Shown in pieces: positions 320-41,977 of a stretch of 44,295 nucleotides of DNA (the stretch's first letter is position 1; each line of letters starts with the position of its first letter). Source of the stretch: a virus (lineage: Duplodnaviria; Caudoviricetes); IMG/VR virus record IMGVR_UViG_3300025837_000005, positions 1 through 44,295 of that record; one strand, given 5' to 3'. The notes beneath the pieces were generated by a model. The model saw only the letters and a list, made by a program, of their open reading frames with translations, made no database searches and was not told where the DNA came from. Made by a program: the position numbers and the translations under genes.

Positions 320-360
320 ATTAAGTGAAAAAACAGATACTAATAAAGGATTTATCACCC

Positions 361-482
361 ATCAATTACTAATCGGCTATAAGCCGATAGTTTGCAAGTA
401 AGTCGGCTGAAGCCGACTCCCTGCGATAGGTTTATTGACCAAAACCCTACCTGGATAGCATGTAGCGTCCAAGTAATTTTGC
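361..482 (-). ncRNA. TnpB omegaRNA scaffold overlapping the tnpB 3' end; predicted guide GGGTGATAAATCCTTTATTA (reverse complement of 341-360)
   Basis: Position at element right end; hairpins ATCGGCTATAAGCCGAT and AGTCGGCTGAAGCCGACT; same block recurs at 20887-21008. Confidence 0.75.
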
Positions 483-1531
483 CGGATATTCCGGCTTGCG
501 TTTAAATCAGCATTGAGAAAGAAACCACAATGTTTACATTTAAAGATAGTTTGAGATTGACGGTTGGAACGGGAGATGTAGCCGCAAGCGGAACATTTCT
601 GGCTGGTATAACGAGCATCAACATACTTGACCTTCATCCCTCTGGCCTCAGCTTTGTAAGCAAGGAATTGCTCAAATTGGAAGAAGTTCCATTTATGCAA
701 CTCTTTACGTTGCTTTTTACGAAGCCTTACAGTTTGCCTGATCCCAGACAAATTCTCAAGGGCAATTACCGTTCCGTTATCAAGAGATTCTACAATTTGC
801 TTTGTTATCGCGTGGTTAGTATCAGTTCTGAAGCGGTTCTCCTTCTTAGATATTTTTTGAAGGTGTCTTTTAGCCGATTTGCTGCCACAAGATTGCAAAA
901 CACTTCTAATCTTTTCGTAACGCCTGGAAACTCTTTTAATTTGACCGCCGCCAAAGAATTGATTTTCAGAGGTAACTGCAATCTTCTTAATCCCCCTGTC
1001 AACGCCGACAACATCGCCGGAGAGTTCCGAATCGGAAACCTCCTTACTGAAAACTATATTCAGAAAAACTTTATTCTTTCTGATAAACAGGTCAGCGGAA
1101 CATCGTTTCCATGTAAGATATTGTCGAAAACATTCAGGAACAGAGACAGGGATTTTGATTCTTCCTTCGATAGTAAGCAGAGAAAGCTCGTTTCGTTCAA
1201 ACCAAACATTGAAACTTCGAGCATCATAACGAACAGAACATTGCTTGCTTTGTGGGCAGGTCGCCTTTTGTTTCTTTTTCAATTTTGCTTTAACGGCCTT
1301 AATGGCTTCAGTAGCTTTCATTCGGGCAGATACAGCAAGCTGGGACGGAAGATATTCTCTTGTTTTAAGATAGGTTTTGTTGTGCAGAGAAACCCCATTA
1401 GAATCGCTGTCATTCCATCCTACTTGACAAACAAAATTAAAAGCCTTTGTGTAGGCGTCCAACGTTGGTTTGATGCTTTCTACCGGGATATTAAGTTTAA
1501 GCTTTATGGTTCTTACAAGCTTCATGTTCAT
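377..1531 (-). CDS. tnpB: RNA-guided endonuclease TnpB
   Basis: RuvC motifs VGVDRG, IALENL, NADLNA all intact; Zn finger CSAC...CKHC; YTSQKCS motif; 384 aa. Confidence 0.96.
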   Translation of the reverse strand: MNMKLVRTIKLKLNIPVESIKPTLDAYTKAFNFVCQVGWNDSDSNGVSLHNKTYLKTREYLPSQLAVSARMKATEAIKAVKAKLKKKQKATCPQSKQCSVRYDARSFNVWFERNELSLLTIEGRIKIPVSVPECFRQYLTWKRCSADLFIRKNKVFLNIVFSKEVSDSELSGDVVGVDRGIKKIAVTSENQFFGGGQIKRVSRRYEKIRSVLQSCGSKSAKRHLQKISKKENRFRTDTNHAITKQIVESLDNGTVIALENLSGIRQTVRLRKKQRKELHKWNFFQFEQFLAYKAEARGMKVKYVDARYTSQKCSACGYISRSNRQSQTIFKCKHCGFFLNADLNASRNIRQNYLDATCYPGRVLVNKPIAGSRLQPTYLQTIGL

Positions 1532-1560
1532 ATAATAAGCACATTAAATATATTTGTCAA
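1532..1560 (-). promoter_or_regulatory. sigma70-type promoter of tnpB, likely giving a leaderless mRNA
   Basis: TTGACA-17 nt-TATTAT on the minus strand, directly before ATG 1531 / ATG 1525. Confidence 0.7.
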
Positions 1561-1629
1561 GAGGAAAAGCGCTAAAGCGACTCGCCTGAAGGCGAGGGTT
1601 TCCGCTTCGCTCCTCCAGGAGACGAGACA

Positions 1630-1740
1630 ATGAGCGAAATAAAAATTATTGAACTGACAAGCCTGAAAACTGAAATATTATTACTTAAGGGTGAATTAAC
1701 AGAGAAGAAAAAGAAATTTACGAAATTATCAGGGAAATAA
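1630..1740 (+). CDS. Small hypothetical protein (36 aa, MSEIKIIELTSLKTE...)
   Basis: ATG at the element junction with AGGAG upstream; stop lies 3 nt before the next gene. Confidence 0.45.
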   Translation: MSEIKIIELTSLKTEILLLKGELTEKKKKFTKLSGK

Positions 1741-1743
1741 ACG

Positions 1744-2586
1744 ATGGGAACTTGGTCATCGGGTGGTAATTTAGCAACAGCGAGAAGCCGTTTAGCAGGT
1801 TGTGGAACACAAGCTGCTGGGTTAAGTTTTGGGGGATATACTGGCGCTAATTCTGCTGTTACCGAGGAATATGATGGAGCAACTTGGTCAGCTGGTGGTA
1901 ATCTAGCAACAGCAAGAAGACTTTTAGCTGGTTGCGGGACACAAACTGCTGGGTTAAGTTTTGGGGGGTATAGTGATGCTAATTCTGCTGTTACTGAGGA
2001 ATATGATGGCACAAATTGGTCAGTTGGTGGTAATATAGCAACAGCAAGACATACTTTAGCAGGTTGTGGAACACAAGCTGCTGGGTTAAGTTTTGGGGGA
2101 TATACTAGCGCTAATTCTGCTGTTACTGAAGAATATGATGGCACAAATTGGTCATCGGGTGGTAATTTAGCCACAGCAAGACGTGGTTTAGCAGGTTGTG
2201 GAACACAAGCTGCTGGGTTAAGTTTTGGGGGATATAGTGATGCTTATTCTGCTGTTACTGAGGAATATGATGGCACAAATTGGTCAGCTGGTGGTAATCT
2301 AGCAACAGCAAGATATTCTTTAGCAGGTTGTGGAACACAAGCTGCTGGGTTAAGTTTTGGGGGATATACTGGCGCTAATTCTGTTGTTACTGAGGAATAT
2401 GATGGCACAAATTGGTTAGCTGGTGGTAATCTAGTAACAGCGAGAAACTATTTAGCAGGTTGTGGGACACAAACTGCTGGGTTAAGTTTTGGGGGATATA
2501 GTGATGCTTATTCTGCTGTTACTGAGGAATATACAGAACTAACAGAACTATTGATATTTATTCCATGGATTGGGGAATGTATGTAA
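1744..2586 (+). CDS. Kelch-like beta-propeller repeat protein, putative virion/receptor-binding protein
   Basis: Six ~47-aa repeats WSxGGNLATARxxLAGCGTQAAGLSFGGY...TEEYDG. Confidence 0.8.
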   Translation: MGTWSSGGNLATARSRLAGCGTQAAGLSFGGYTGANSAVTEEYDGATWSAGGNLATARRLLAGCGTQTAGLSFGGYSDANSAVTEEYDGTNWSVGGNIATARHTLAGCGTQAAGLSFGGYTSANSAVTEEYDGTNWSSGGNLATARRGLAGCGTQAAGLSFGGYSDAYSAVTEEYDGTNWSAGGNLATARYSLAGCGTQAAGLSFGGYTGANSVVTEEYDGTNWLAGGNLVTARNYLAGCGTQTAGLSFGGYSDAYSAVTEEYTELTELLIFIPWIGECM

Positions 2587-5289: not shown

Positions 5290-5969
5290 TGAGAAAAACG
5301 AAAAAAAGAAAGCAAGCGGCGAGGCAGCCACGCGGCCAGGAACTGCCGGCTAATTTTGACCAGCAGGTCGAGCAAGTGACGGCGATGGCGATGTCCATCA
5401 TCTACGATGAGAAGAACGGCATCGTCGAAAGACAACTCCCAGATGCGTTACAGGATGCACAACAGATCGTTCAAGGAGAAGAGGATGTTATCCCTTCTGC
5501 TATTGCGAACGTTGCCTTGTGGGTATTGGCTACCGTTGAAGCGAACATTGAAAGCAAGGGCCATTCCGTCAGGCCGATTGTTGTTCTTGGGGCTATCGGC
5601 AGGATCGTTGCCGAGGTCTCGGAGGCTGCACAGGCAACCGGAACTGTCCAGATGAATAAAGAGGATATTCAGGTTGCGATAGCCGCTGCAATTAGTCTAT
5701 ATATCTCGCAGGCAAGGAAAGAGGGTAAGGTTACAAACCAACAGCTTATAGAGGCAATCAAGGCGCTCCAGAAAGCGTATCCGAAAGAAGCCGCCAATTT
5801 TCAACAGATGATACAGGCAAGGGCTCAGCGACAAGCCACTGGCCAGGGCAAAATCCTGGCTCAGCCCGGCATGAAAGGGTCGGTACAGCCGCTTGTTAAA
5901 CAAGGCATGGCAGGCCAAGCGCCCAAACCAGGATTACTTGGAGGCGCCAGGTCAACTACCGTCAGTTAA
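5289..5969 (+). CDS. Hypothetical virion-module protein; last 5 residues supplied by the inserted element
   Basis: Start overlaps upstream stop (TAATG); removing 5951-6297 restores GCC AGA TGA. Confidence 0.7.
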   Translation: MRKTKKRKQAARQPRGQELPANFDQQVEQVTAMAMSIIYDEKNGIVERQLPDALQDAQQIVQGEEDVIPSAIANVALWVLATVEANIESKGHSVRPIVVLGAIGRIVAEVSEAAQATGTVQMNKEDIQVAIAAAISLYISQARKEGKVTNQQLIEAIKALQKAYPKEAANFQQMIQARAQRQATGQGKILAQPGMKGSVQPLVKQGMAGQAPKPGLLGGARSTTVS

Positions 5970-6297
5970 AGCAGGCGGCTTGTAACTGCACTCCGCCGCA
6001 ATTTCCCATAAGGGGTTTTGGCATCATCGTGCGTTACGATACGGCTATTGACTGAGCCGCTACCTGGATAGCATATAGCGTCCAAGTAATTTTGCCGGAT
6101 ATTCCGGCCAGCATTAAGATCAGCATTAAGAGAGAAACCGCAATGTTTGCACTTGAAGACAGATTGAGATTGACGATTGGAATGGGAAATGTATCCATAA
6201 TATGCACATTGAATGCTTTTATCAAGAAAAATCTTTTAAGAAAGGAGGACGGCATTTCTCTCCCAGCTAAAGCAGGGAGTTTCCTGCCGTGTGATTT
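5951..6297 (-). mobile_element. Internally deleted IS200/IS605 derivative (PATE/MITE-like) with omegaRNA, tnpB 3' remnant and promoter
   Basis: Right end ...GGTAGTTGAC; left-end hairpin CTCCCTGCTTTAGCTGGGAG; 6060-6195 similar to tnpB 3' end; TTGATA-17-TATTAT at 6225-6197; followed by ATGA. Confidence 0.88.
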
Positions 6298-7296
6298 ATG
6301 AAAGCAGGTCTTTTAAGCGGAATCGGCCAGGGTTTGGGCAATATTGCGAATATGGCCCAGTGGTATTACGGAGAGAAGAAAGAGGCTGACCGGCAAGAAG
6401 AACTAAAAAAAATTCTGGTTGGAGAAAAGGCCCTCGGAGCAAAACAATATGAAGAAAAGATTATTGGATACACAAAGGACGGAAGACCAGTAACCCAAGG
6501 CATGTTGTCCGGCGGAGAGTATGAAGGAGCAATCTACGGACAGCAGATAAGGGATGACAACTCACAGGTGTATGTTGATAAAGACGGGAACGTTATCCCG
6601 GATATTTCTAAACATAAGGGGCCTGCGTTTAAGATTGGACCGTATATTCCAGGTTATAAAGAAAGGGAGTATGACAACTCACAGGTGTATGTTGATAAAG
6701 ACGGGAACGTTATCCCGGATATTTCTAAACACAAGGGACCTGCGTTTAAAATTGGACCGTATGGTTATGGGCAACAGATAAGGGAGCATAACAACTCACA
6801 GGTGTATGTTGATAAAAACGGGAACGTTATCCCGAATATTTCTAAACACAAGGGGCCTGCGTTTAAGATTGGACCGTATGGTTCAGGTGACGGTAGCGAT
6901 GGCGGCGGGGAGGTAGACCTTGTTAATATTAAACGATTTAATGATCTTGCCGCACAGATGCTCGGCGTCAAGAAGTTTTCGGTTGGGGCAAGAATAAAAG
7001 GCCGGCCGCCGGACGAGACGACCATAGACTTATTAAGCAAAATGGCTGGCGAACAGTTGGTCGTTAAGCCGGATAACGGCGGGTTGCTTGGAAAGAGGGG
7101 ATACACAATATTGCCAGCCTCGTCGGTTGGTGTGGGGAGCAGTGAGGTCAATTTTTTTGTCGGTGATGATCCGAATGCACCTCCGCTTATTTCTAAAGAA
7201 GAAAGAAACGAAAAACTGAAGACCAGAAGGGAAATTGAGAAAAAGATGACGTTTATGGAAAAGTTCAGGGCTAAAAACGCGAATTCTAATGAATAA
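6298..7296 (+). CDS. Putative internal virion protein with three internal repeats
   Basis: 3x (D/N)NSQVYVDK(D/N)GNVIP(D/N)ISKHKGPAFKIGPY; GLLSGIGQGLG N-terminus. Confidence 0.65.
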   Translation: MKAGLLSGIGQGLGNIANMAQWYYGEKKEADRQEELKKILVGEKALGAKQYEEKIIGYTKDGRPVTQGMLSGGEYEGAIYGQQIRDDNSQVYVDKDGNVIPDISKHKGPAFKIGPYIPGYKEREYDNSQVYVDKDGNVIPDISKHKGPAFKIGPYGYGQQIREHNNSQVYVDKNGNVIPNISKHKGPAFKIGPYGSGDGSDGGGEVDLVNIKRFNDLAAQMLGVKKFSVGARIKGRPPDETTIDLLSKMAGEQLVVKPDNGGLLGKRGYTILPASSVGVGSSEVNFFVGDDPNAPPLISKEERNEKLKTRREIEKKMTFMEKFRAKNANSNE

Positions 7297-7313: not shown

Positions 7314-10300
7314 ATGGCTCTTTTAAAATATATCCGGGAGAAAAACGGCGGCCTCCCAAACATAGATTCTTTTGCTCTTGCCAAAGCGGTTTATGACGCG
7401 AATCCGAAGTATCAAACAATGTCGTTTGATAACTTTGCCAGCGCTGCTGGAATCGAAGAAGATATAGCAGCGACAAGAAGCGGTTTAAAGGATACTGCTG
7501 CTGCCGTTATTGAAAGCGTTCCTGTTGCGGGCATGGGTCTGCTGTCATCCGCTGTTGGCGCCATAAAGGGCGTCAGTAAAAATGCCGGGGTATATGCAGA
7601 AGACCTTACGATGGCAGAACGGCTTCAGTCTAAGTCTGATAAAATGACGGCGGAGTATCTTCAGAAGCATGGCATAAACACAGGTGATAAGTTTTTAGGA
7701 CTAACGCCTGCTGGGGTTGCACAGGCCATGTCAAACATGGGTTACACCGGCCTGGGCATGGTGTCCGGCGGTGCTGGCGGTGCTGCAGGGCTGGCTGCAA
7801 CCGGAGGGAACCCGGTTGGCGGTTATGTTGGCGCTGGTGTTGCTTCAGCCGGAGTGCTAACATCTGCCGCTAAAAACCAAATCATGCGCGCCTACCGGGA
7901 TGCCCTGAATGAGAAAAGGGAAGAAGCGGGTGAGCCTATTCTGTCAGATAAAGAATGGTTTGAAACAGCAGCGGCCTTCAATAAAGAAGCCAATAAACAC
8001 GCCCTCTGGGAGTCCGGCCTCGAGACAGCCGGGGAGCTTCTCGAGTTTGGCGCTATTACCGCCCCGCTCAAAAAAATAGTTGGAAAAGAAATAGCCGAGC
8101 GGATGGCTAAAAACTGGATAGGGAAGACCGCAAATGTTGGCGTCCGGAGCGCGGCTGCAAGTGGATCAGAGCTTGCGACAGAAGCGGTCACACTTCTCAA
8201 ACAAGCGCCGATTGAAAAAAAAGCTGGTCTTAGAGAAGACGTACCTGAAAATTTTCTCGAAGCCGTTAAAGAGGTTTACCCGGTTGTCATGCCGATGGCG
8301 ATTATAGCTGGCGGCGGGGCGAAGTTGGGTCATGTCGCATATAAAAAAGCGTCTGAAAGAATAAAAGAGGCCAAAGAGAAGCGGGCTAACACCGCAGTGG
8401 AGCAGGCAAAAAAACTGGCGGAAAGCCTTATCGGGAAAGAACCCTCTGATACCGGACTGAGAGACCGGGATTTAGCTATTATCGCAGAAGAGATACTGAA
8501 CGATATTGAAACAGGGCTTTATGACAATCCGGCGGTAGCCAACGACTTGGCCGGTGAGGTTGAAAGAACCCCGGGGCTTTTGGATGCCATTGAAAAAGCA
8601 AAGAATGTGCGGGTTGGCGTGATCCCTACCCCCGCCACGCCCAGTCCGTCTTTATCTGAAACCAATCTCGGGCCCGACTTTAAGAATGCCCCGGTAAACC
8701 GGTCCGCTCTCGACGCTGAGGATTCAGAGAAAAACAGGATTCGGCAGGTTTATGCCCTGAAACAGCAAATTGCTGCCGTAAAGCAACAAGCTCCCGGGGA
8801 AACACAAACTCCGTTCCGGGCCCGGGTTATCAAAAAGCTTGAGGCAGACCTGGAGGCCCTTGGCCCGGTTAATCTTTCGGCAGAAGCTGCAAAGCGGAAC
8901 CAGGTTGTTCTCTCCGGCATGAAGCCTGAGATCGCCGGTTTTAATGTGCCGAAGACAAAAGAGGACGTTTTGGCAGAGCAGGCTTTAGCAGGGGCCGAAG
9001 AGACCGCTTGGGCCGACGAGCAGAAGACGATACAGAAACAACGCAACGATCAACAAGTCATTTCCTTAAGGAAGAGGCTTGCGGATCTCAAAAAGCAGAA
9101 ACAGACCAAGCCTGTAAAGAAACAGATAAAAGAGACGGAAGATCGTCTGGGCTCGCTGAAGCCCGCGGATATAATTCGCCAAAAAGCAAGGGAAAACCAA
9201 GCCCGAATTGATGCCGGGCTGTTCCCAGAAGAATTCCCGGAGCCTCGGACATTTGAGAATGCCCCGGTAAACCGGCTGGCCGGGAAAGCGAAGACTTTGG
9301 CCGATATGTCGGCAAGCCTCCAGACGACCGAAACAAGGGGTGTGGCGACCGATAAAGAAGGAAATCGATATTCTTTCGGTGCATCGTCTCCAAGATGGTT
9401 TACAAAACTGAACGAAAAGACGAAGTCTGTAGGGCAGGAGTTTTTTTCCAGGAAAGAAATTGACGTACTCGCAAGGAAATACGTCTCCAGGGCGAAGCTG
9501 ACGGCGAAACAACGTCAGCGCATGTTTCTTCTTGATCAGGCGGTCACCGATTTTGAGAACGAAACTGGTAAAGAGAAAAAAGGAACAGTAACCCCTTCTC
9601 CTGAGACGCCCCAAACAATCTCCAGCGAACCACTGGCTGCACCACAGTCTGACGTAACCAACACCCTTACCCCAACCGATAACAAATTGTTACCAGTTGC
9701 AGAAGCCAAATCAGTCCCCGCCGAAGTTCTGAAAGACTACCCGGACCTTGCGGCAAAAACAAAGCCGGCAGCATGGGAATCAAGTGAGCTTGTCCAAAGT
9801 CCGAACATCCAGATAGACAGAACCGAGGCAAAGAAGCAGGCCGATGGATCGTTTAGGCTGTTCTTCCGTGGCACTCGCAATGAGGTTTTTGCCGGGCAGA
9901 CGTTCGGGTCCGCATCCGAGGCCCGTCAATTTTTTAAAGTCCAGCAGGCAAAAGCGCAGCAGGATGCCGCTTCCAGCAGAAAAGAACCTGACGACAGCCC
10001 GAAATTCAGCCTGACTGAAGACAAATCTCTTTATATCACACACAATATCACCGAAGACAAGCTGCGCCATGCGCTAGATCTTGGTGGATTGGCAATGCCA
10101 TCCTCCGCCGTGTCTAGTATTAAAAACGAAGCAATGGTGAAATTTGGGGATATTTCTCTTCTCGCGCACCCTAATTTTTTACAGTCTGGTAAAGTGCGTG
10201 TGTTTGACGCCGATATTTATTCTCCGCGCTACCCGGCAGCCAAATATGATATTAACGAAAAAGCCATTACCGATTTTAATAAATGGATAGATGGGGACTG

Positions 10301-13300
10301 GAACCCATTCGTGTCGACACAAAACAAGTGGTCCGGCCATCTTGATGGTTCTGACATACAGGGCCATGGCCTAGACGCCATTTTAAATAAAAATTCTGTA
10401 AAGTATGCATGGCTTCGGGATAATGGTATTGCTCCCAAAATAACCAAGAACACGGAATCGCCGTATAAATCATTGAGCCAGGCTTTCAGGTCTCATAAAA
10501 CAGAAAACGCCTTCCGTACTTTCGTAAGGGAAAAGTTTAAAACACTCGTTACCGGGCGCAAGATTTTAAAAGGAGTTACCTCTTTAGGCAACCGGAGGTA
10601 CATACCGTATACTCTTGATAATATTATAAAACAAATGCGGTCGGGCGCATTGCGTAGTGGAGAAGCTTCTTTTTACGGCGTCGGCAGCATCCGAGCGTCA
10701 CATGCAAAAGAATACAAAAGCCTCGGGAGCATCAAAAAAGACAAGGACCGGCTAGTTAACTCTGAACAAATGAACAAAATTAAAAATGACCTACAAAACC
10801 AACTGTCAGATCTTCTTGAATCGTTGAAACCGTTTTATAAATTTGAATCAACGTCGTTTGGTTATTATGATGACGCAGGTCGCGCATTAGCTGAAGGGCG
10901 CCATGGTATAAACGAAACCTTTAAAGAGTTGCCGAAAGAGGCGCTTGATAAGATTGACGCTTTTTTAAAATCTTTAAAAGAGGCGCCGACTGAATATTTT
11001 GAAGCGAAGGCTCAAAGGATTGTCGGTTTTAACGAATTTCACACGGCAGTTGTGCCAAAAAACACATCGCCGGACGTTGTTGCCGCACTAAAAAAACACG
11101 GTCTAGCCATCAACTATTACAAGAACGGCGACAATGCCGACAGGCAGCGAGCTATACGGAAAGCCGATAAGGTGTTGTTCCAGAAGACCACTTCTCTAGG
11201 CAGCGGCTTTCCCATTGCCGAAGTTAAGGCCATTGTTTTGCCACTTTTGAACAAGCTGACCGCTGGACCAAAGGCTCACTTCGTTCAGTCAGAAGCGGAG
11301 CTTCCCCCCAGGATTATAGACATCATCCAGCGAAAAAACGCATCCGGGCAGATTGTCGCCGTTAATGATCGTGGTGACATCTATTTCGTGGCAGACAATA
11401 TCCGTTCGACCGAAGATGCAGAGTCTGCATTCCTCCACGAGGTGTTCGGGCACTACGGTGTTGAGGCGATTCTCGGCAAGGAAAAAGCCAAGCGGTTTTT
11501 CACCAGCGTCTGGATGAGCAAGCTCAATGACCCGGAGTTCATGAAAATCGCCACTACCTACGATTCAGACCTGTCCACGGTTGCTGGCAAGGTGGAAGCG
11601 GCCCGCGAATATGTGGCAAAGCTGGCAGAATCCGGAGTAGACAACTCACTAATTACGAAATTGATCGGCATGATCCGGGGCGCCCTGCGGAAGTTGGGCG
11701 TGAAAATGAAGATCAGCAACAACGATATCCGCCAACTAATTGCCCTGGGCGCCCGGCAGATGAAGGGGGTGCGGTCTAAACTGCTCGTTGCCGAAAAAAC
11801 TGTTAATTTTCAGATTGCTGAAATGGTGAAGCATGTGCTCGGCATTAAGTTAGACCCGGCACAACCATCCGACGATGTTTTTTTTATGCGGACCCCCGCT
11901 CCTACTCCCGCCCCGATGATTGACAATTTCAAGGCGCTGAAGAAAGCGTTCGGCGAAACGACAGCCAGGGTGATTCGGGGTAAGATGCCGATTGCTTATG
12001 ATCACAGTGAAGAATTGATTGCTTTTCTTCAAAAGAAAGTGCCCGTCAAGTCGCATCTCCCCTACATCATCACAAATATGGGGATGGAGTTAGAGGTAGA
12101 GTTTTTATCCGAGAAGATGATCATTGTAGCGCCTGTCAAAGAAAAACTTACGCTGTCCGCTAAGGAGTTAGCCGAAAAAGCAGGATATAGGCTGACGGAG
12201 ACGAAAACTCGAAAAGATGTTCTTTCGTTTCGGTCAGATTACTCAAGAAACAGTGTAATATGTACGTACAATGACATAGAAGGCCGGTTGCGTGACCGTT
12301 TTATATTCTGGTTGCGCCGGTATAATGCTGATGTAACGCCGAGGGCCGAAGAGTTAACACAAGATAATCTTACCCCGGAATGGAAAAAATATCTGGAAAA
12401 AAGGGGTTGGTTAAAAGATGACGGGACGTATGCCCTGTCTGGGCTAAAGAGAGAACGGGAAGATCCTTATGGTACGTCGTCAATGTGTGTGCAAATCTGG
12501 CGTAAAAACGATAAATCAAAGGGGTCATTATGGATTCTCAACAGATATAATCATACCCTTCAGGACGGGAAAAATCCCGATGTTACATATAATAGAAAGC
12601 TAAACAAAATTATAGATGGTCTTGAGGACGCCATTTATGATTATGTAAAGATAAAAAAACCCGCAACGACCACGGACACGCCCGTCCTCTCCCCCGGCAT
12701 AGTCGAAGACGCGCAAGGGAGCCTATATCACTATGCCCGTGAGCGGAATGGCGTATATTGGGGCGACGGTTTTATTATGAGTGGTGGAGCGGCTACGATT
12801 GTCAACCCGGGCATTGAACGAGTGGTGGAGGGGTTTGTTCTGCGGGCTGACGGGATTGTAAATGGGGTTGGCTTATTCGCCAACTACGAGAACAGCATTT
12901 TTAGCCTTATCGGCAAGACCCGCTTTGGCAAAAAAGGGTTGATTGAGTGCACTACAAAAGACAACAAAAAGTTTTCTTTTTTTGTGCAAAATGGGCAGAT
13001 AATAAGATTCGATACCGGCGATCTTACTGAAATCAGCGGCTACTCCCTGTGCGACAACGCCGCCCTGACTTCAATTGCCCTGCCGAACGTGACTACCATT
13101 GGCGCCTTCTCCCTGAGTTACAACTCCGCCCTGACTTCAATTGCCTTACCGAACGTTGAAACCATTGGTAATAGCTCCCTGCGTGACAACGCCGCCCTGG
13201 CTTCAATTGAACTGCCGAACGTTAAAATCATTGACAACTACTCCCTGAGCGGCAATGCCGCCCTGACTTCAATTGAACTGCCGAACGTGACCGCCATTGG

Positions 13301-16300
13301 CAACTACTCCCTGCGTGACAACGCCGCCCTGGCTTCAATTGCCTTACCGAACGTTGAAACCATTGGTAACAACTCCCTGAGCAACAACCCCGCCCTGGCT
13401 TCAATTGAACTGCCGAACGTTAAAATCATTGACAACTACTCCCTGAGCGGCAACGCCGCCTTGGCTTCAATTGCCTTACCGAACGTGACCACCATTGGCA
13501 ACTACTCCCTGAGCAACAACGACTCTCTGACTTCAATTGCCTTACCGAATGTGACCACCATTGGCAACTACTCCCTGCGCGGCAATGCCGCCCTGACTTC
13601 AATTGCCTTACCGAACGTGATCACTATTGGCAACCACTCCCTGCGCAGCAATGCCGCCCTGACTTCAATTGCCTTACCGAACGTGATCACTATTGGCAAC
13701 CACTCCCTGTGCAACAATGCCGCCCTGGCTTTAATTGAACTGCCGAACGTGACCACCATTGGCGACCTCTCCCTGATCGACAATGCCGCCCTGGCTTCAA
13801 TTGCCTTACCGAACGTTGAAACCATTGGTAACGATTCCCTGAACAACAACCCCGCCCTGGCTTCAATTGAACTGCCGAACGTGACCACCATTGGCAACTA
13901 CTCCCTGAGCGACAACGCTGCCTTGGCTTCAATTGAACTGCCGAACGTTAAAATCATTAGCAGCTACTCCCTGTGCAACAATGCCGCCCTGGCTTCAATT
14001 GAACTGCCGAACGTTAAAATCATTAGCAGCTACTCCCTGTGCAACAATGCCGCCCTGACTTCAATTGCCTTACCGAACGTGATCACTATTGACAATTACT
14101 CCCTGCGCGACAACGCCGCCCTGGCTTCAATTGCCTTGCCGAATGTGACCACTATTAGCAACAGCTCCCTGAGCAGCAACCCCGCCCTGACTTCAATTAC
14201 CCTGCCGAACGTTGAAACCATTGGTAAAAACTCCCTGCGCAACAACGCCGCCCTGGCTTCAATTGCCTTGCCGAATGTGACCACCATTGGCAACTTCTCC
14301 CTGAGCGACAACGCTGCCCTGGCTTCAATTGAACTGCCGAACGTGACCACCATTAGCGACTACTCCCTGAGCAACAACGCTGCCCTGAAGAATATTATTT
14401 TACCTTTCGGGAAGAAAATTGTCCGCAACAACAAGACGTTTACGGGTGTGAGAGCCGAAGATCAGGATAAGCCGCTGTTTCAAACCGTAAAGGCAGGCGT
14501 CTCAAATTTTTCCGGCGTTACCACAAAACAGATACGGTCTTTTTTTAAAGGCCTTGATTCCGGCCGGTCGCCGGATGGTAAGGTCTGGGTTCGGATCGGC
14601 AAGCGAATCGTAATCGTGGAACAGGTGGAGGGGTTGATCAACAAGAGACAGTTTGTGGCCACCCTGTCCATCCGGGATCCCGGCAAAGCGTTCGGTGCAT
14701 ACAAGAACAAAACCATTTATTTATCTTCCCTGGGTGATAAATATACGCTGGCCCATGAGGGCATCCATCTTCTGGATGACATCGGTCTGATAAATAGGCT
14801 GGAGCAGACAGTTATTGAAAAGGCGGCCGGTGTTGAGCGTGGGGCCTCTGTCGGTGACCGAGCTGAAGCAAGGGCTGAATATCTTACCGCCTTATTGGAG
14901 GCCCGCGAGAAAACCCGCAATACGGTCCTGGGCCGAATCGTGCAAAAGGTGCGGGATTTTATTGACGGCCTGCGGGCGCTGTTTGGGGCGACGGTCGGGC
15001 AGGTGGCCAAGGGTATTGAGACCGGGCAGGCGTTCCAGAGAGAGGCCGGTAAGGGTGAGAGTGGGGCTGGCAAGATCATCCCCCTGCTCGAGCGGTTCAA
15101 CGACCAGAGCGATGATATCCGGTTCCAAACAGTAGGCCCTGCCGATGCCCTTGGCACAGCCGATACAATCGACAAAAAAGCCGCTGAGAAAACCAGAAAG
15201 GCCGTCGATGCAATTATAGCCGACATTAAAAAAACCACAAAGAAAAATACTATCACGGTCTCTGAGACAAAGGCCCGGAAGCTGGCCAGTGATTACGTTT
15301 TTCTTAAGACTATGATGAAAGACAACAGCGTTGACTTAGAGCAAAAAATAAAAGAATACAAGGCTTTCCTTATGAAGTTGCCCCCCGGCGTCAGAGCGAA
15401 AGCGCTGGCCGGTATGCCGAAAATAGTCACGGCAAAAACCAAAAAGACGCGGCAAAAATATTTTGACCAGGTTATCGTTCAAGCGCAAAAGTTTCTCTCC
15501 GAAGAGGTTAAAAAAGAACTCCGCCGAGACATCCATAAACTGCGTCGCAAACCGCGCACGGCCAAAGGCGGAAAGGTAAAAAAGAACGTCCTCTCCCAGC
15601 TTGAAAAACTAAACAAAACCGTTTTTGGTAAAACCCCGATAAATACAATGCCGGCGGCTGAGTTTCATATCAACGCCTTATCAAAACAGCGGGAGACGCT
15701 AGAGGAAAACGTTCCTGATTCGGACAACAAGATTGCTACAAACAAGTGGTTTTCAGATATCGAAGACATTGACCAGAAGATTGCTCTGATAAATACCTTC
15801 GGTGGCATAAAGGAAATGTCCGAAGCGCAGCTTGTCAATGCTTATGAAGAGTTACAGAGGATAATCGCTGAAGGCCGGACAAAATGGCAGGTAAGTGAGG
15901 CCATACGGAAACAAAAAATGGAGGAAATCCGGGGACGCCTTGACCGTGAGATTACTGGCGAAAAAGCCCCGAAGCCGGAAACCATTGGTCAAAGAAACCA
16001 GAGAATCCGTGACCAACAAAAAGCGTGGAACCGGATCGCCGACAAACTATCTCAATTCGATACCATACATCAAAGCTGGCGGTTCTTGATGGACAAACTG
16101 GCCAGAAAGTCCGGGAAGGGTACGCTGAAGTCCGACGCGGTTGAGATTATCGGTGGGGCAGCTCATTACGCAACAAACGAAGAAAACGCGCTCAACGGTG
16201 CGGCGATTGCTATGATAACGAAAAAAGTGAAGGATTTGATCGGCGGAACGGGGCACAAAGTCAAGAGATGGGTTGATAACCAATCAAATAAAGAGGATCT

Positions 16301-18053
16301 GTATATACTAACGTATGAAAATGGAAAGAACGAACAAATCAAATTGACCCCGATGACGGCGGCATATTGGTGGGCAGTAAAACAACGGGGCGACGCTCTC
16401 GCCGAAGATGGTATGGCAATGGTCAATACGACGTTCCAGAAAATGGGTGCAGACGCAGCTTTTTTCGGGCAGATTAAGAAAACGATTGATCCCGCGGTGA
16501 TTGAGTTATCCAGGTGGCTGTCAGAGACCCTGGGAGAGCACATCTACCAGACCGTTTCGCCTGTTTACAAACAGCGGTTTGGCGCCGTCCTTGATCACGG
16601 TCGAGCATATACCCCGATTCAGCGACAAATTTTTCGTAAAGAGAGGGATGTTAATTTGCTTCAGCAGTACCAGGAAACGCCGTCGATTATTAAAGGAGCA
16701 CTTCACACGCTGACGCACTCAACCAAGTCCATTCGGGAAACCAACCTGCTAAAAGTTTGGATGGATCATATATATGACATGAACCATTTCGCGGCTTGGT
16801 CGATTCCAATACAGATGATGCAGAGTGTTTTCGGCAACCCGATCACTAAGGGATATATTGAGCGGATTCACGGAACCAACATGAATTTCGCCATAGACGA
16901 GTTTATAAAGAAATTTACTGCCGGTCGCCGTAAGCTCAAGGATGTGTTTAATGTTTTAAATCTCGATTCCTGGCGGGGCCGGTTCAGCTCGGCCGTCATT
17001 GGCGCGAACCCTGTTATTTACATCAAACAGCTTACTTCCATCCCGGCAATGGCGGCGGATATCCCGACGAACGATTTTATCGCCGGGTTTGCCGACTTCC
17101 TGAATCCGACAACCGGCAGCCCTTTGGAAAAAATGCGGATTCTCGGAAAATCTCAGTTCGTTAAAATGAGATATGAAAAAGGCCATACCCGGGACGTGGC
17201 CATTGCCAGCAGGAAGACCCTTGGGCAGACAATCGGGCAGCAACACAACTGGCCAACGAAACTGATGTTTCTGGCACGCCTGGGCGACATGCAGGCCATT
17301 TATGCCGGAGGGTGGGCCGTCTATAAGTATCACCTTGAAGCCGGTCTTAAAAACGGCTTGGGTGAGCCTGAAGCGAAAAAACGGGCGATTATTAAATTTG
17401 AGGAGGTCGCAAGAGATACCCAACAGTCTGGAGAAATTATGGACCTGGGCCTTGTCCAACAGGGAGGCGACTTTTCAAAGCTGATGACCATGTTCTTCAC
17501 TGCCCCGGCCAGTTATTATCGGGAGATATCCGCCGCCATCAGAAATATGCCTGCCAACCCTGGTAATTCCGCAAAAAGATTGTTTCTCTTCTGGGTGATT
17601 GTCCCGGCAATGTTCGAGGCAATAGCCTCCCTTCCGCTGGTATTCGATGATGACGATGACGATTTTACTCTTTTCTGGAAACGAATGTTCCGATCTGTTG
17701 TTCTCGGGCCTACAAATGGGCTTTTTCTTGTCAGAGACATCGCAGAGACGCTGTATAACATTCTGTTTCTAAAGAACGATTCCGGATGGGGCGACGCTCA
17801 ATATTCTCCGGTCGGCAGCGTATCGGATACAACAAACAGGATTGCTAAGGATCTCCGGGAAATAGTCGAAGGCGACGACGATGATTTTGAGAAGCTGTTA
17901 AAAGACGCCGTCGATATCGCTGGTTATGTGTCGGGTTACCCGCTACCGGCCGCAAGCAACTTGATCGAAAACTGGGTGGATGTCGCTGCCGGGGACACGG
18001 AGCATCCTATGGCGCGGTCTATCGGTTATAGACAATGGGCTACCGGGGATTAG
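7314..18053 (+). CDS. Giant polyvalent (probably injected virion) protein with two zincin-like HExxH motifs and a BspA-type LRR array
   Basis: 3579 aa; HEVFGHYG and HEGIH motifs; about 21 x 22-aa LPNVTTIGNYSL repeats; last gene of the ejection-protein block. Confidence 0.8.
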   Translation: MALLKYIREKNGGLPNIDSFALAKAVYDANPKYQTMSFDNFASAAGIEEDIAATRSGLKDTAAAVIESVPVAGMGLLSSAVGAIKGVSKNAGVYAEDLTMAERLQSKSDKMTAEYLQKHGINTGDKFLGLTPAGVAQAMSNMGYTGLGMVSGGAGGAAGLAATGGNPVGGYVGAGVASAGVLTSAAKNQIMRAYRDALNEKREEAGEPILSDKEWFETAAAFNKEANKHALWESGLETAGELLEFGAITAPLKKIVGKEIAERMAKNWIGKTANVGVRSAAASGSELATEAVTLLKQAPIEKKAGLREDVPENFLEAVKEVYPVVMPMAIIAGGGAKLGHVAYKKASERIKEAKEKRANTAVEQAKKLAESLIGKEPSDTGLRDRDLAIIAEEILNDIETGLYDNPAVANDLAGEVERTPGLLDAIEKAKNVRVGVIPTPATPSPSLSETNLGPDFKNAPVNRSALDAEDSEKNRIRQVYALKQQIAAVKQQAPGETQTPFRARVIKKLEADLEALGPVNLSAEAAKRNQVVLSGMKPEIAGFNVPKTKEDVLAEQALAGAEETAWADEQKTIQKQRNDQQVISLRKRLADLKKQKQTKPVKKQIKETEDRLGSLKPADIIRQKARENQARIDAGLFPEEFPEPRTFENAPVNRLAGKAKTLADMSASLQTTETRGVATDKEGNRYSFGASSPRWFTKLNEKTKSVGQEFFSRKEIDVLARKYVSRAKLTAKQRQRMFLLDQAVTDFENETGKEKKGTVTPSPETPQTISSEPLAAPQSDVTNTLTPTDNKLLPVAEAKSVPAEVLKDYPDLAAKTKPAAWESSELVQSPNIQIDRTEAKKQADGSFRLFFRGTRNEVFAGQTFGSASEARQFFKVQQAKAQQDAASSRKEPDDSPKFSLTEDKSLYITHNITEDKLRHALDLGGLAMPSSAVSSIKNEAMVKFGDISLLAHPNFLQSGKVRVFDADIYSPRYPAAKYDINEKAITDFNKWIDGDWNPFVSTQNKWSGHLDGSDIQGHGLDAILNKNSVKYAWLRDNGIAPKITKNTESPYKSLSQAFRSHKTENAFRTFVREKFKTLVTGRKILKGVTSLGNRRYIPYTLDNIIKQMRSGALRSGEASFYGVGSIRASHAKEYKSLGSIKKDKDRLVNSEQMNKIKNDLQNQLSDLLESLKPFYKFESTSFGYYDDAGRALAEGRHGINETFKELPKEALDKIDAFLKSLKEAPTEYFEAKAQRIVGFNEFHTAVVPKNTSPDVVAALKKHGLAINYYKNGDNADRQRAIRKADKVLFQKTTSLGSGFPIAEVKAIVLPLLNKLTAGPKAHFVQSEAELPPRIIDIIQRKNASGQIVAVNDRGDIYFVADNIRSTEDAESAFLHEVFGHYGVEAILGKEKAKRFFTSVWMSKLNDPEFMKIATTYDSDLSTVAGKVEAAREYVAKLAESGVDNSLITKLIGMIRGALRKLGVKMKISNNDIRQLIALGARQMKGVRSKLLVAEKTVNFQIAEMVKHVLGIKLDPAQPSDDVFFMRTPAPTPAPMIDNFKALKKAFGETTARVIRGKMPIAYDHSEELIAFLQKKVPVKSHLPYIITNMGMELEVEFLSEKMIIVAPVKEKLTLSAKELAEKAGYRLTETKTRKDVLSFRSDYSRNSVICTYNDIEGRLRDRFIFWLRRYNADVTPRAEELTQDNLTPEWKKYLEKRGWLKDDGTYALSGLKREREDPYGTSSMCVQIWRKNDKSKGSLWILNRYNHTLQDGKNPDVTYNRKLNKIIDGLEDAIYDYVKIKKPATTTDTPVLSPGIVEDAQGSLYHYARERNGVYWGDGFIMSGGAATIVNPGIERVVEGFVLRADGIVNGVGLFANYENSIFSLIGKTRFGKKGLIECTTKDNKKFSFFVQNGQIIRFDTGDLTEISGYSLCDNAALTSIALPNVTTIGAFSLSYNSALTSIALPNVETIGNSSLRDNAALASIELPNVKIIDNYSLSGNAALTSIELPNVTAIGNYSLRDNAALASIALPNVETIGNNSLSNNPALASIELPNVKIIDNYSLSGNAALASIALPNVTTIGNYSLSNNDSLTSIALPNVTTIGNYSLRGNAALTSIALPNVITIGNHSLRSNAALTSIALPNVITIGNHSLCNNAALALIELPNVTTIGDLSLIDNAALASIALPNVETIGNDSLNNNPALASIELPNVTTIGNYSLSDNAALASIELPNVKIISSYSLCNNAALASIELPNVKIISSYSLCNNAALTSIALPNVITIDNYSLRDNAALASIALPNVTTISNSSLSSNPALTSITLPNVETIGKNSLRNNAALASIALPNVTTIGNFSLSDNAALASIELPNVTTISDYSLSNNAALKNIILPFGKKIVRNNKTFTGVRAEDQDKPLFQTVKAGVSNFSGVTTKQIRSFFKGLDSGRSPDGKVWVRIGKRIVIVEQVEGLINKRQFVATLSIRDPGKAFGAYKNKTIYLSSLGDKYTLAHEGIHLLDDIGLINRLEQTVIEKAAGVERGASVGDRAEARAEYLTALLEAREKTRNTVLGRIVQKVRDFIDGLRALFGATVGQVAKGIETGQAFQREAGKGESGAGKIIPLLERFNDQSDDIRFQTVGPADALGTADTIDKKAAEKTRKAVDAIIADIKKTTKKNTITVSETKARKLASDYVFLKTMMKDNSVDLEQKIKEYKAFLMKLPPGVRAKALAGMPKIVTAKTKKTRQKYFDQVIVQAQKFLSEEVKKELRRDIHKLRRKPRTAKGGKVKKNVLSQLEKLNKTVFGKTPINTMPAAEFHINALSKQRETLEENVPDSDNKIATNKWFSDIEDIDQKIALINTFGGIKEMSEAQLVNAYEELQRIIAEGRTKWQVSEAIRKQKMEEIRGRLDREITGEKAPKPETIGQRNQRIRDQQKAWNRIADKLSQFDTIHQSWRFLMDKLARKSGKGTLKSDAVEIIGGAAHYATNEENALNGAAIAMITKKVKDLIGGTGHKVKRWVDNQSNKEDLYILTYENGKNEQIKLTPMTAAYWWAVKQRGDALAEDGMAMVNTTFQKMGADAAFFGQIKKTIDPAVIELSRWLSETLGEHIYQTVSPVYKQRFGAVLDHGRAYTPIQRQIFRKERDVNLLQQYQETPSIIKGALHTLTHSTKSIRETNLLKVWMDHIYDMNHFAAWSIPIQMMQSVFGNPITKGYIERIHGTNMNFAIDEFIKKFTAGRRKLKDVFNVLNLDSWRGRFSSAVIGANPVIYIKQLTSIPAMAADIPTNDFIAGFADFLNPTTGSPLEKMRILGKSQFVKMRYEKGHTRDVAIASRKTLGQTIGQQHNWPTKLMFLARLGDMQAIYAGGWAVYKYHLEAGLKNGLGEPEAKKRAIIKFEEVARDTQQSGEIMDLGLVQQGGDFSKLMTMFFTAPASYYREISAAIRNMPANPGNSAKRLFLFWVIVPAMFEAIASLPLVFDDDDDDFTLFWKRMFRSVVLGPTNGLFLVRDIAETLYNILFLKNDSGWGDAQYSPVGSVSDTTNRIAKDLREIVEGDDDDFEKLLKDAVDIAGYVSGYPLPAASNLIENWVDVAAGDTEHPMARSIGYRQWATGD
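13020..14400 (+). repeat. About 21 tandem 66-nt repeats encoding BspA-like leucine-rich repeats
   Basis: Unit GCCCTG(A/G)CTTCAATTG..(C/T)T.CCGAACGT......ATTNNCNNCNNCTCCCTGNNCNNCAAC. Confidence 0.92.
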
Positions 18054-40723: not shown

Positions 40724-41977
40724 ATGGGACAATTATGGTCAGTTAATACTCTCGGGGGCTATATGTACTCCGACAATCTAAGCGCTGAGCTGCGGACCGC
40801 GGTTCAGCCGGGTCTGAGATTCCGTTAAGATAGGCGGAATTAAAACTTTGCTATATGCGGGAACGAACTGAGTATATATCACTACCAAAGTGTAAAAATG
40901 TGATATTGCAGTCAATCCGCAGGGAAGTCAAATATGGTATTTTGACCCCCCAACGACTACACGCAGAGCAAACTCAGTATTTGAGTTTGATGATATAGTC
41001 TGGACTTACGGGCGACCGTAAGAGGGATTACGAAAAGAAACCCCGCCTCAGTAGAGGTCAGTAGGCTTTAGCCTGTCCGCCGGATGACAGGCGGGGCCGA
41101 AAGCAACAGATTGCAGTTTTGCGATGTCAAAGACCCTGAGCAGAGCAAGCGGCACAAGGGTGCTATATTTCACTGGAACGTTTATTCGGACGTTGAGACG
41201 CAGGGTAAAAACCTGGCGGAAACCAGCGTTATGCCTGAAACGCAGTTCACCATCACTCCAGGGACTCTTACCATTACGGAATATGGGAACTCCGTACCTT
41301 ACACCGGGATACTCGATGAGCTTTCTGAACATCCCGTGAAAGAGCTGATTCACAAGGTTTTGAAGAACGACTGTAAAAAGGCTCTTGACACCGCTGCACA
41401 CGATCAGTTTAAGCAGACTCCGTTACGAGTTGTACCGGCGGACAACGGTGCCAGTCTTGACTCCCTTGTCATGACTGAGAACGGCGCTACTACCATAACG
41501 AACAACGTTGCGATGGGGAAGAATCACATTAAGGTGATTATCGACACCATGAAAGAGCGGAATATTCCGCCCTACATGGAAGAGGATTACTACGCCATCG
41601 CCCGGCCGTCCACTTACAGAACGTTTAAGAACGACTTGGAGACTATCAAGCAGTACGTTGAGACCGGGTTCGGCCAGATTCTCCGTGGGGAGATTGGCCG
41701 ATACGAAGGCTGTCGGTTCGTTGAACAGACGAATATCTTGGCTGGGATCGGATCCACAGCGGATGCGCCTTGGACAAACGCCATGTCTGACTGGGCATTT
41801 TTCATGGGCGAGGACACCGTAGCAGAGGCTGTCGCGGTTCCCGAGGAAATTCGTGGAAAATTGCCCGGCGATTTTGGGCGAGACAAGGGCATCGCATGGT
41901 ACGCGCTTTTGGGATACGGTCTGGTTCATACTGACGCAACTCAGGCTCGCATTATCATGTGGGATTCTGCTGCATAA
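40724..41977 (+). CDS. Major capsid protein (N4-gp56-like), spliced: join(40724..40825,41114..41977), 321 aa
   Basis: Exon 1 MGQLWSVNTLGGYMYSDNLS...LRFR joins in frame to QFCDVKD...; TITEYGNSV, GEIGRYEG, DFGRDKGIAWY; AGGAGG RBS. Confidence 0.88.
40826..41113 (+). ncRNA. Group I intron without ORF (288 nt)
   Basis: Exon-terminal U in P1 (TTCCGT/GCGGAA with G-U pair); ATGCGGGAA and AATCCGCAG core; R CGACTACACG and S GATATAGTC forming P7; terminal G; removal restores frame. Confidence 0.88.

Follow-up and report, generated by a model that had tools for sequence, protein, structure and literature searches.

In classical IS elements such as IS5 and IS903, the strand opposite the main gene bears a further ORF in codon register with it. 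Other described systems resemble the locus examined here in target or in function. An N|ATGA target has been published for IS605B elements, e.g., IS605B-1_MA and IS605B-1_HM, in the passages devoted to them by Kapitonov et al. (2016, PMC4810608). In the ISGst elements, with omega-RNA-guided TnpB or IscB, TnpA and the nuclease use one and the same TAM, beside the left end; that of the IscB element ISGst5 is TTCAT, and an orientation bias of IscB relative to neighboring genes is explained by omega-RNA transcription in the relevant part of the preprint (bioRxiv 10.1101/2023.03.14.532601). MIRUs insert at start codons and carry a −4-coupled ORF, which the corresponding sections of PMC12548453 propose to minimize harm. 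IStrons are TnpB elements that keep the burden of an insertion on host expression low; they are spliced out by a group I intron, according to the portion of bioRxiv 10.1101/2023.11.20.567912 that concerns them.

The present locus lies in a 44.3-kb phage contig, the whole of which (44,295 nucleotides) is referred to as the window. Like IS605B (PMC4810608), its element contains tnpB only and has subterminal hairpins; it is likewise placed, probably without target duplication, directly ahead of ATGA, with tnpB read from the other strand. As in ISGst elements, a putative TAM adjoins the left end. The passages on IS605B describe the target only, and an antisense ORF, an SD or coupling was not found in them.

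Overall organization of the element

Profile matches identified a terminase, an SU10-type portal and adaptor, a primase and a major head protein in the window. The virion genes are on the + strand, and the element lies antisense to them. Its parts and immediate surroundings are as follows.

346..350, + strand: AAGGA, an SD-like motif of the host that in the reconstructed empty site lies 10 nt ahead of ATG 1630
361..1629, − strand: tnpB-only IS200/IS605 element, 1,269 bp, with ends predicted from termini conserved across relatives
361..500, − strand: right end and predicted omega-RNA scaffold; predicted guide, the flank at ~341–360
377..1531, − strand: tnpB, intact (NF040570, 200.6 bits against a cut-off of 100; Pfam match)
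1532..1560, − strand: sigma70-type promoter of tnpB, TTGACA-17-TATTAT, 11/12 consensus match
1561..1629, no strand assigned: left end with subterminal hairpin; on the + strand, AGGAG at 1617–1621, 8 nt before ATG 1630
1630..1633, + strand: target motif, ATGA on + and TCAT on −; antisense-ORF stop and next start
1630..1740, + strand: putative 36-codon ORF, overlapped (−4) by the antisense ORF and ending 3 nt before ATG 1744
1744..2586, + strand: following gene of the chain, 280 codons, encoding a repeat protein (phrog_27227)

The RuvC residues D178, E259 and D342 and four cysteines of TnpB are invariant across 14 aligned relatives, i.e., both the RuvC triad and the zinc ribbon are present. Subterminal hairpins without terminal inverted repeats occur at both ends in the window and in relatives. 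tnpA is absent from the 1,269 bp, which hold only tnpB and an antisense ORF without a family match. The element is placed 3′ of TCAT (minus strand), in front of ATG 1630. TCAT was likewise found, between unrelated flanks, at 39 of the 41 called close-relative sites; since the target caller preferred TCAT, such counts are partly circular, and five close-relative sites were not called. Two viral scans (7 and 5 loci) returned no empty allele: five of the candidates carried the insertion at the main site, and the others were not orthologous. The element belongs to the tnpB-only IS200/IS605 group (IS1341/IS605B type).

The −10 box of the promoter lies 6 nt upstream of the second tnpB ATG (1525), where room for an SD is often lacking. 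This ATG is kept in all 45 close relatives, and tnpB likely starts there, on a leaderless mRNA. From tnpB codon 346 onward, synonymous change drops to 0.67, 0.31 and 0.20 of expected, which would fit the overlapping predicted omega RNA. On the host side, the insertion would now separate AAGGA 346–350 from ATG 1630. The 36-codon ORF that begins at this ATG matched no Pfam or PHROG family. Its interpretation as the broken N-terminus of the protein at 1744, with which it shares a frame, was rejected as unsupported, nothing alike being present in 120 homologues of that protein.

Several other features were noted. A third remnant of IS200/IS605-like type, recognized by eye, lies on the + strand at ~2620–2745, after the 280-codon gene, with a hairpin right end and a terminal TTCAC. 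No group I intron was detected inside the element, the sole Rfam match of the window being RF00028 at 40782–41022. This intron appears to split the major capsid gene (region 40724–41977), as it is flanked by a short ORF at 40724 and a capsid-matching ORF at 41084–41977. The product of positions 7314–18053, a virion-type protein of 3,579 aa, contains BspA-type leucine-rich repeats and a PBECR5 domain. Among the relatives, a second tnpB of another family stands in tandem directly upstream of the studied element in L079 (1189–2301) and L080 (1–1329).

Antisense open frame in the window

530..1633, + strand: antisense ORF, 367 codons, codon-aligned with tnpB, within a stop-free frame at 506–1630
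512..532, + strand: predicted initiation region of the antisense ORF, a purine-rich tract plus ATG, weak in this copy
5951..6297, − strand: 347-bp sister element, which differs from the full-length relative L036 by an internal, in-frame deletion of 951 nt

An earlier note, made from the letters of the DNA alone, had reported a 367-codon ORF running antisense through tnpB. It is indeed present at 530–1633 (+), in codon register with tnpB 377–1531 (−), and its ATG 530 is the reverse of tnpB His334. The statement that tnpB uses no TTA, CTA or TCA over 334 codons is correct and even conservative: the first such codon is 343, so that 342 are free of them. As also stated, leucine and serine are plentiful, with 24 and 30 residues, respectively, within the first 334 codons. 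However, the description of tnpB as AT-rich is only moderately apt (41% GC, GC3 0.40). With codon usage taken from 26 other genes of the window, such an open frame has a probability of 5.5 × 10−6. The longest antisense-open run among those genes is 207 codons, in the 3,579-codon gene, and the other genes of the phage use the stop-making codons freely (TTA 143, CTA 63, TCA 119). The open frame is confirmed as real and beyond chance.

The frame was further said to end exactly on the downstream start. TGA 1631–1633 does overlap ATG 1630, but that ATG opens only 36 codons. The sister element, claimed to keep the same frame open across its internal deletion, does so: the frame is open from 6056 to TGA 6299–6301 over ATG 6298, with an ORF at 6143–6301. 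The deletion of 951 nt is a multiple of 3, by itself a 1-in-3 event. The sister occupies a reconstructed ATGA stop/start overlap and supplies the upstream gene with a stop, TAA 5967–5969.

Conservation of the open frame among relatives

Three collection scans gave 104 loci, which were reduced to 66 distinct full-length genes by removal of partial, broken and identical copies. They comprise 45 close relatives (68–100% identity), 8 deeper relatives, 7 members of a clade lacking the frame and 6 outgroup genes. A wider viral scan gave 70 loci, 13 of which were dropped as duplicate or partial, for a total of 123 genes reaching down to ~35% identity. Two further scans aimed at the frame-less and deep clades returned already-known loci only, and no close relative was found in annotated phages, where all matches were under 60% identity.

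Over codons 7–337 of the 45 close relatives, CTA accounts for 2 of 719 CTN codons, TCA for 3 of 967 TCN codons and TTA for 3 of 222 TTR codons; A-ending codons make up 17–30% in the six other four-fold boxes. By parsimony, arrivals at stop-making codons number 8/474 inside the ORF, 33/125 outside it and 345/1,512 in the control boxes. In the whole family, 83 of 123 members carry no more than one antisense stop, 71 of them none at all. Of the 45 clusters formed at 70% identity, 32 reach no more than 0.25 of the number expected from their own composition. The frame is open at GC3 values of 0.17–0.30 (0/48 in L140, GC3 0.17; 0/44 in L050; 0/48 in L174), and in ~15 distant members the entire tnpB is devoid of TTA, CTA and TCA.

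As a control, 56 viral tnpB genes of another family were used (81 loci, minus 3 broken and 22 near-duplicates). They contain 1,107 stop-making codons against 1,251 expected, i.e., 0.88 of expectation, and only two have at most one antisense stop, both with GC3 of at least 0.77. In this survey of homologues, which the earlier note had proposed as a check, the open frame is thus not general among tnpB genes, although the controls differ by family and their operon context is unverified.

Openness also extends past tnpB. The non-coding promoter stretch is open in 53 of 63 open elements and in 4 of 17 closed ones, and the other two frames across it are open in 15 and 29 of the 63. Because this stretch is non-coding, codon choice in tnpB cannot account for its openness. 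By contrast, the distal 54 nt of the left end are open as often in closed elements (12/17) as in open ones (40/63).

Predicted initiation and coupling of the antisense frame

In the 45 close relatives, the start column reads CAT in 36, CAA in 8 and CGT in 1, CAT and CAA being antisense ATG and TTG; CAC and CAG do not occur. His codons elsewhere in these genes are divided between CAT (146) and CAC (119). SD strength, taken as pairing with an anti-SD motif, exceeds that of synonymous shuffles in 40 of the 45 (mean −6.1 vs −3.0 kcal/mol). No excess is seen in the 8 deeper relatives (4/8) or in the frame-less clade (1/7). Since the 45 are kin, these start and SD counts are not independent. The sequences show a predicted antisense start codon and an SD-like site conserved in close relatives. 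The SD before ATG 530 of the present copy is among the weakest (−2.7 kcal/mol), and a scan by consensus found no element-borne promoter on the + strand ahead of ATG 530. Distant members share no one start, and their frame often opens within the right end.

At the other end, the element target TCAT is ATGA on the other strand, so an ATGA overlap is partly built in. The exact overlap with the start described in the earlier note is present in this copy but in only 16 of 41 close relatives, whose frames end on the target ATG: −4 in 12 and −1 in 4. In 4 more, the frame ends within 12 nt of it; in 7, it stops 27–42 nt short and in 14, more than 100 nt short. Among 63 open TCAT elements, 36 have the target TGA in frame, and 25 of these read through the left end, with 5.5 expected from shuffles (−1 included); of the other 27, 3 do so, with 3.8 expected. 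With one vote per cluster, read-through is 8.6/20 vs 1.2 expected. Given the open distal 54 nt in closed elements, part of this excess is attributable, as far as sequence goes, to the geometry of the end. An SD-like site next to the ATG occurs in 17/63 open vs 1/17 closed elements, and one beyond the hairpin in 27/63 vs 6/17. A phase bias (target TGA in frame in 36/63) was discarded as evidence, being weak by cluster (9.8/20 vs 6.7) and present in closed elements as well.

A separate observation concerns L005/L292, where an element with a 94%-identical tnpB has the same right-end flank as window 341–360 and a different short ORF downstream. This suggests that the downstream module was exchanged at the element.

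Openness of the frame and its putative peptide

The third positions of tnpB are the first positions of the antisense frame; if the antisense protein were constrained, synonymous change in tnpB would therefore be expected to slow. The median dN/dS of tnpB is 0.09–0.13 in the open clade and 0.07–0.12 in the frame-less clade, and synonymous sites are near saturation among relatives. CAA/CAG changes, silent on both strands, occur at 0.92, no faster than the antisense-radical changes AGA/AGG (Ser/Pro antisense, 0.84) and TTT/TTC (Lys/Glu antisense, 1.12). The synonymous profile is flat except for the omega-RNA region and a dip at codons 211–255, whose invariant codons are partly common to the frame-less clade. 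Neither dN/dS nor the doubly silent changes revealed purifying selection on the antisense amino-acid sequence.

Within codons 221–232 (window 836–872), CAC CTT and AAG GAG AAC are nearly invariant in the 45 close relatives, and the pattern is largely kept in deeper relatives, including most of the frame-less clade. A tnpB-strand stem, CCTT(N)...(N)AAGG, is possible there, with an inner pair that varies among C-G, A-T, G-C and T-G; it is predicted to hide an internal AAGGAG.

The peptide itself has no Pfam or PHROG family and no usable Atlas match. A homologue search with it gave 8 matches, all other tnpB-antisense gene calls. AlphaFold returned no confident fold (pLDDT 28, pTM 0.18; weak evidence, from a 7-sequence alignment), the Atlas pLDDT is 0.32, and the C-terminus varies among relatives. 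Selection thus appears to act on openness rather than on a peptide product, and openness conserved without amino-acid constraint is what a function in ribosome transit predicts.

Insertion sites and lineages without the frame

Empty sites were rebuilt at the 21 loci with enough flank. They correspond to a start or stop in 11 of 21, whereas the remaining ATGA sites of those flanks do so in 224 of 1,059 (P 0.0016); 10 are neither start nor stop, and 1 of 21 is internal. At 12 sites, the antisense strand carries most of the flanking coding; at 7, the tnpB strand does.

The frame is absent from a TTAT-targeting clade (91 stops vs 123 expected) and from 17 of 80 TCAT-targeting elements. A separate clade that lacks it, on very large phage contigs (L142, 327 kb; L146, 406 kb), includes L086, beside a PhuZ-like tubulin, and L090, beside RF2. 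L192 (183 kb), whose sisters are open, and L102–L104, of which L103 has archaeal-type neighbors, are frame-less as well. The TCAT-targeting elements of very large phages, L142, L146, L152, L086, L090 and L192, all lack an open antisense frame. With the TTAT clade excluded, the frame is missing in 6 of 11 viral contigs of at least 100 kb vs 5 of 47 below that size, a comparison that serves as a lead only, contig size being a poor stand-in for genome size and several cases sharing a clade. Perhaps an RNA polymerase of their own or a phage nucleus removes the need for the frame in very large phages.

Proposed function and alternative explanations

According to the relevant sections of PMC12548453, operon RNA that is not translated attracts Rho in bacteria and, in archaea, likely FttA; the most frequent coupling geometry is NTGA (−4), and coupling fades beyond ~30–40 nt. 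A backward insertion before ATGA would often part a gene from its RBS or from an upstream stop and would add 1.2 kb of antisense RNA to the host operon transcript. Host operon RNA would enter the element at its right end, where a codon 16–19 nt inside would become the stop of any upstream gene that had relied on the target TGA; this early stop is also present in 8 of 9 TTAT elements and is therefore probably a matter of the conserved hairpin loop. Ribosomes would then start at ATG 530, the reverse reading of the zinc-finger His codon, and cover ~1.1 kb of otherwise naked antisense RNA open to Rho (FttA in archaea). They would end on the host ATG, through coupling as here, or earlier, with the left-end SD restarting translation. 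Of 5 MAGs in which relatives occur, 3 contain Rho, a figure from incomplete MAGs that is no measure of Rho dependence; TATA-like promoters were recognized by eye in some open elements, and the mechanism therefore need not depend on Rho specifically.

We therefore propose, with a probability of roughly 0.7, that a dummy ORF opposite tnpB carries ribosomes over the insertion, whereby the host operon would escape premature transcription termination. The earlier note had already suggested selection for ribosome transit. That suggestion agrees with an open frame that is conserved and not general, with the open promoter stretch, with the start and SD, and with the lack of peptide constraint; its exact coupling is confined to a minority of close relatives. 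In general, the frame likely serves to relieve polarity, with exact coupling as a refinement that some lineages have. We also lean toward a wider proposition: a broad TnpB branch found in bacteria, archaea and their viruses may approach start codons from behind and hide its insertion via a kilobase dummy ORF, overprinted on the nuclease gene and serving solely to bring ribosomes across, which would replace the upstream stop, suppress polarity and re-initiate the host gene, and which would be shed where unprofitable (the clade with another target, very large phages). Points against such a bridge are the 7 of 21 sites with coding mainly on the tnpB strand, where it would be useless, the 10 of 21 that are neither start nor stop, the 17 of 80 TCAT-targeting elements without the frame, the weak SD of this copy, the lack of SD excess in deeper relatives, and the ORF that would be coupled here, which has 36 codons and no homologue.

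Openness without amino-acid constraint would also arise if the frame were translated mainly for the element, with ribosomes blocking the pairing of antisense RNA with tnpB mRNA or omega RNA and hence silencing or RNase III attack. Indeed, 14 of 41 frames stop at tnpB codons 4–13, where the overlap with tnpB mRNA ends. Yet, in close relatives, the omega-RNA part (codons above ~340) would be left uncovered, and neither the excess read-through past tnpB to the target TGA nor the open promoter stretch is accounted for; we consider this explanation unlikely. A functional overprinted protein, e.g., a regulator of TnpB or of transposition, seems less probable again. Length and start are conserved in close relatives and gene callers provide 6 full-length homologues with 50–66% identity, but that identity follows from tnpB conservation, the synonymous rate of tnpB is not lowered, and doubly silent changes are not preferred. 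The variable C-terminus, the missing family match and the two low pLDDT values also speak against it. A short constrained segment could escape detection; the dip at 211–255, however, holds codons that are invariant in the frame-less clade too.

If tnpB avoided TTA, CTA and TCA for its own translation, owing to scarce or cleaved Leu/Ser tRNAs, the open frame would be a by-product, and the ~15 distant members wholly devoid of these codons would be expected. In close relatives, however, avoidance ends at the antisense start (8/474 vs 33/125), the other genes of the phage use the three codons freely, and openness continues in the same frame into non-coding DNA, by which this idea is largely refuted and retains very little probability. 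Codon-aligned antisense frames are often long. Chance or composition, with ATGA simply the target, can also claim that ATGA is indeed the target of such elements (PMC4810608, in its target descriptions) and that the distal left end needs no selection. Set against this are a P of about 5 × 10−6, frames open at GC3 0.17–0.30, synonymous sites near saturation and a control family at 0.88 of expectation, which make chance a negligible contender next to ribosome transit.

Implications and comparison with known systems

If ribosome transit across the element is correct, the frame would provide a clear example from nature of selection on the openness of a long ORF and on nothing else, and the divergence to ~35% TnpB identity gives a range over which such selection can be measured. 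It would also explain how RNA-guided TnpB elements persist in essential operons, here those of the phage virion, without an intron, and would constitute a third way of hiding an insertion, besides splicing it out as RNA or as protein. Stops can be added without changing TnpB, which makes the element a clean test bed for polarity and coupling, and a design for non-polar insertion cassettes is suggested. For annotators, antisense “hypothetical proteins” across tnpB should not be taken as evidence of a functional product.

A literature search confined largely to openly accessible papers did not find an antisense ORF across tnpB, and a prior description may exist. The term “start codon” is absent from the main text of PMC4810608, as is “antisense” from those of bioRxiv 10.1101/2023.03.14.532601 and PMC10691335. 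No paper on the codon-register antisense ORFs of IS5 and IS903 was found in the literature search. Those ORFs are short and not known to be tied to a start-codon target.

Unlike an IStron, the element contains no Rfam intron match and would act via translation of the other strand. The closest functional analogue is provided by MIRUs: by sequence, this copy and 12 of 41 close relatives have the −4 arrangement, and 4 more the −1. Yet MIRUs are short mycobacterial repeats, whereas here a 1.27-kb nuclease-coding element resides in a phage. Its bridge ORF, unlike that of MIRUs, is ~1.1 kb long, is overprinted antisense on the nuclease gene and extends to the ATG in part of the family only. By analogy, the element would work like a MIRU without being one.
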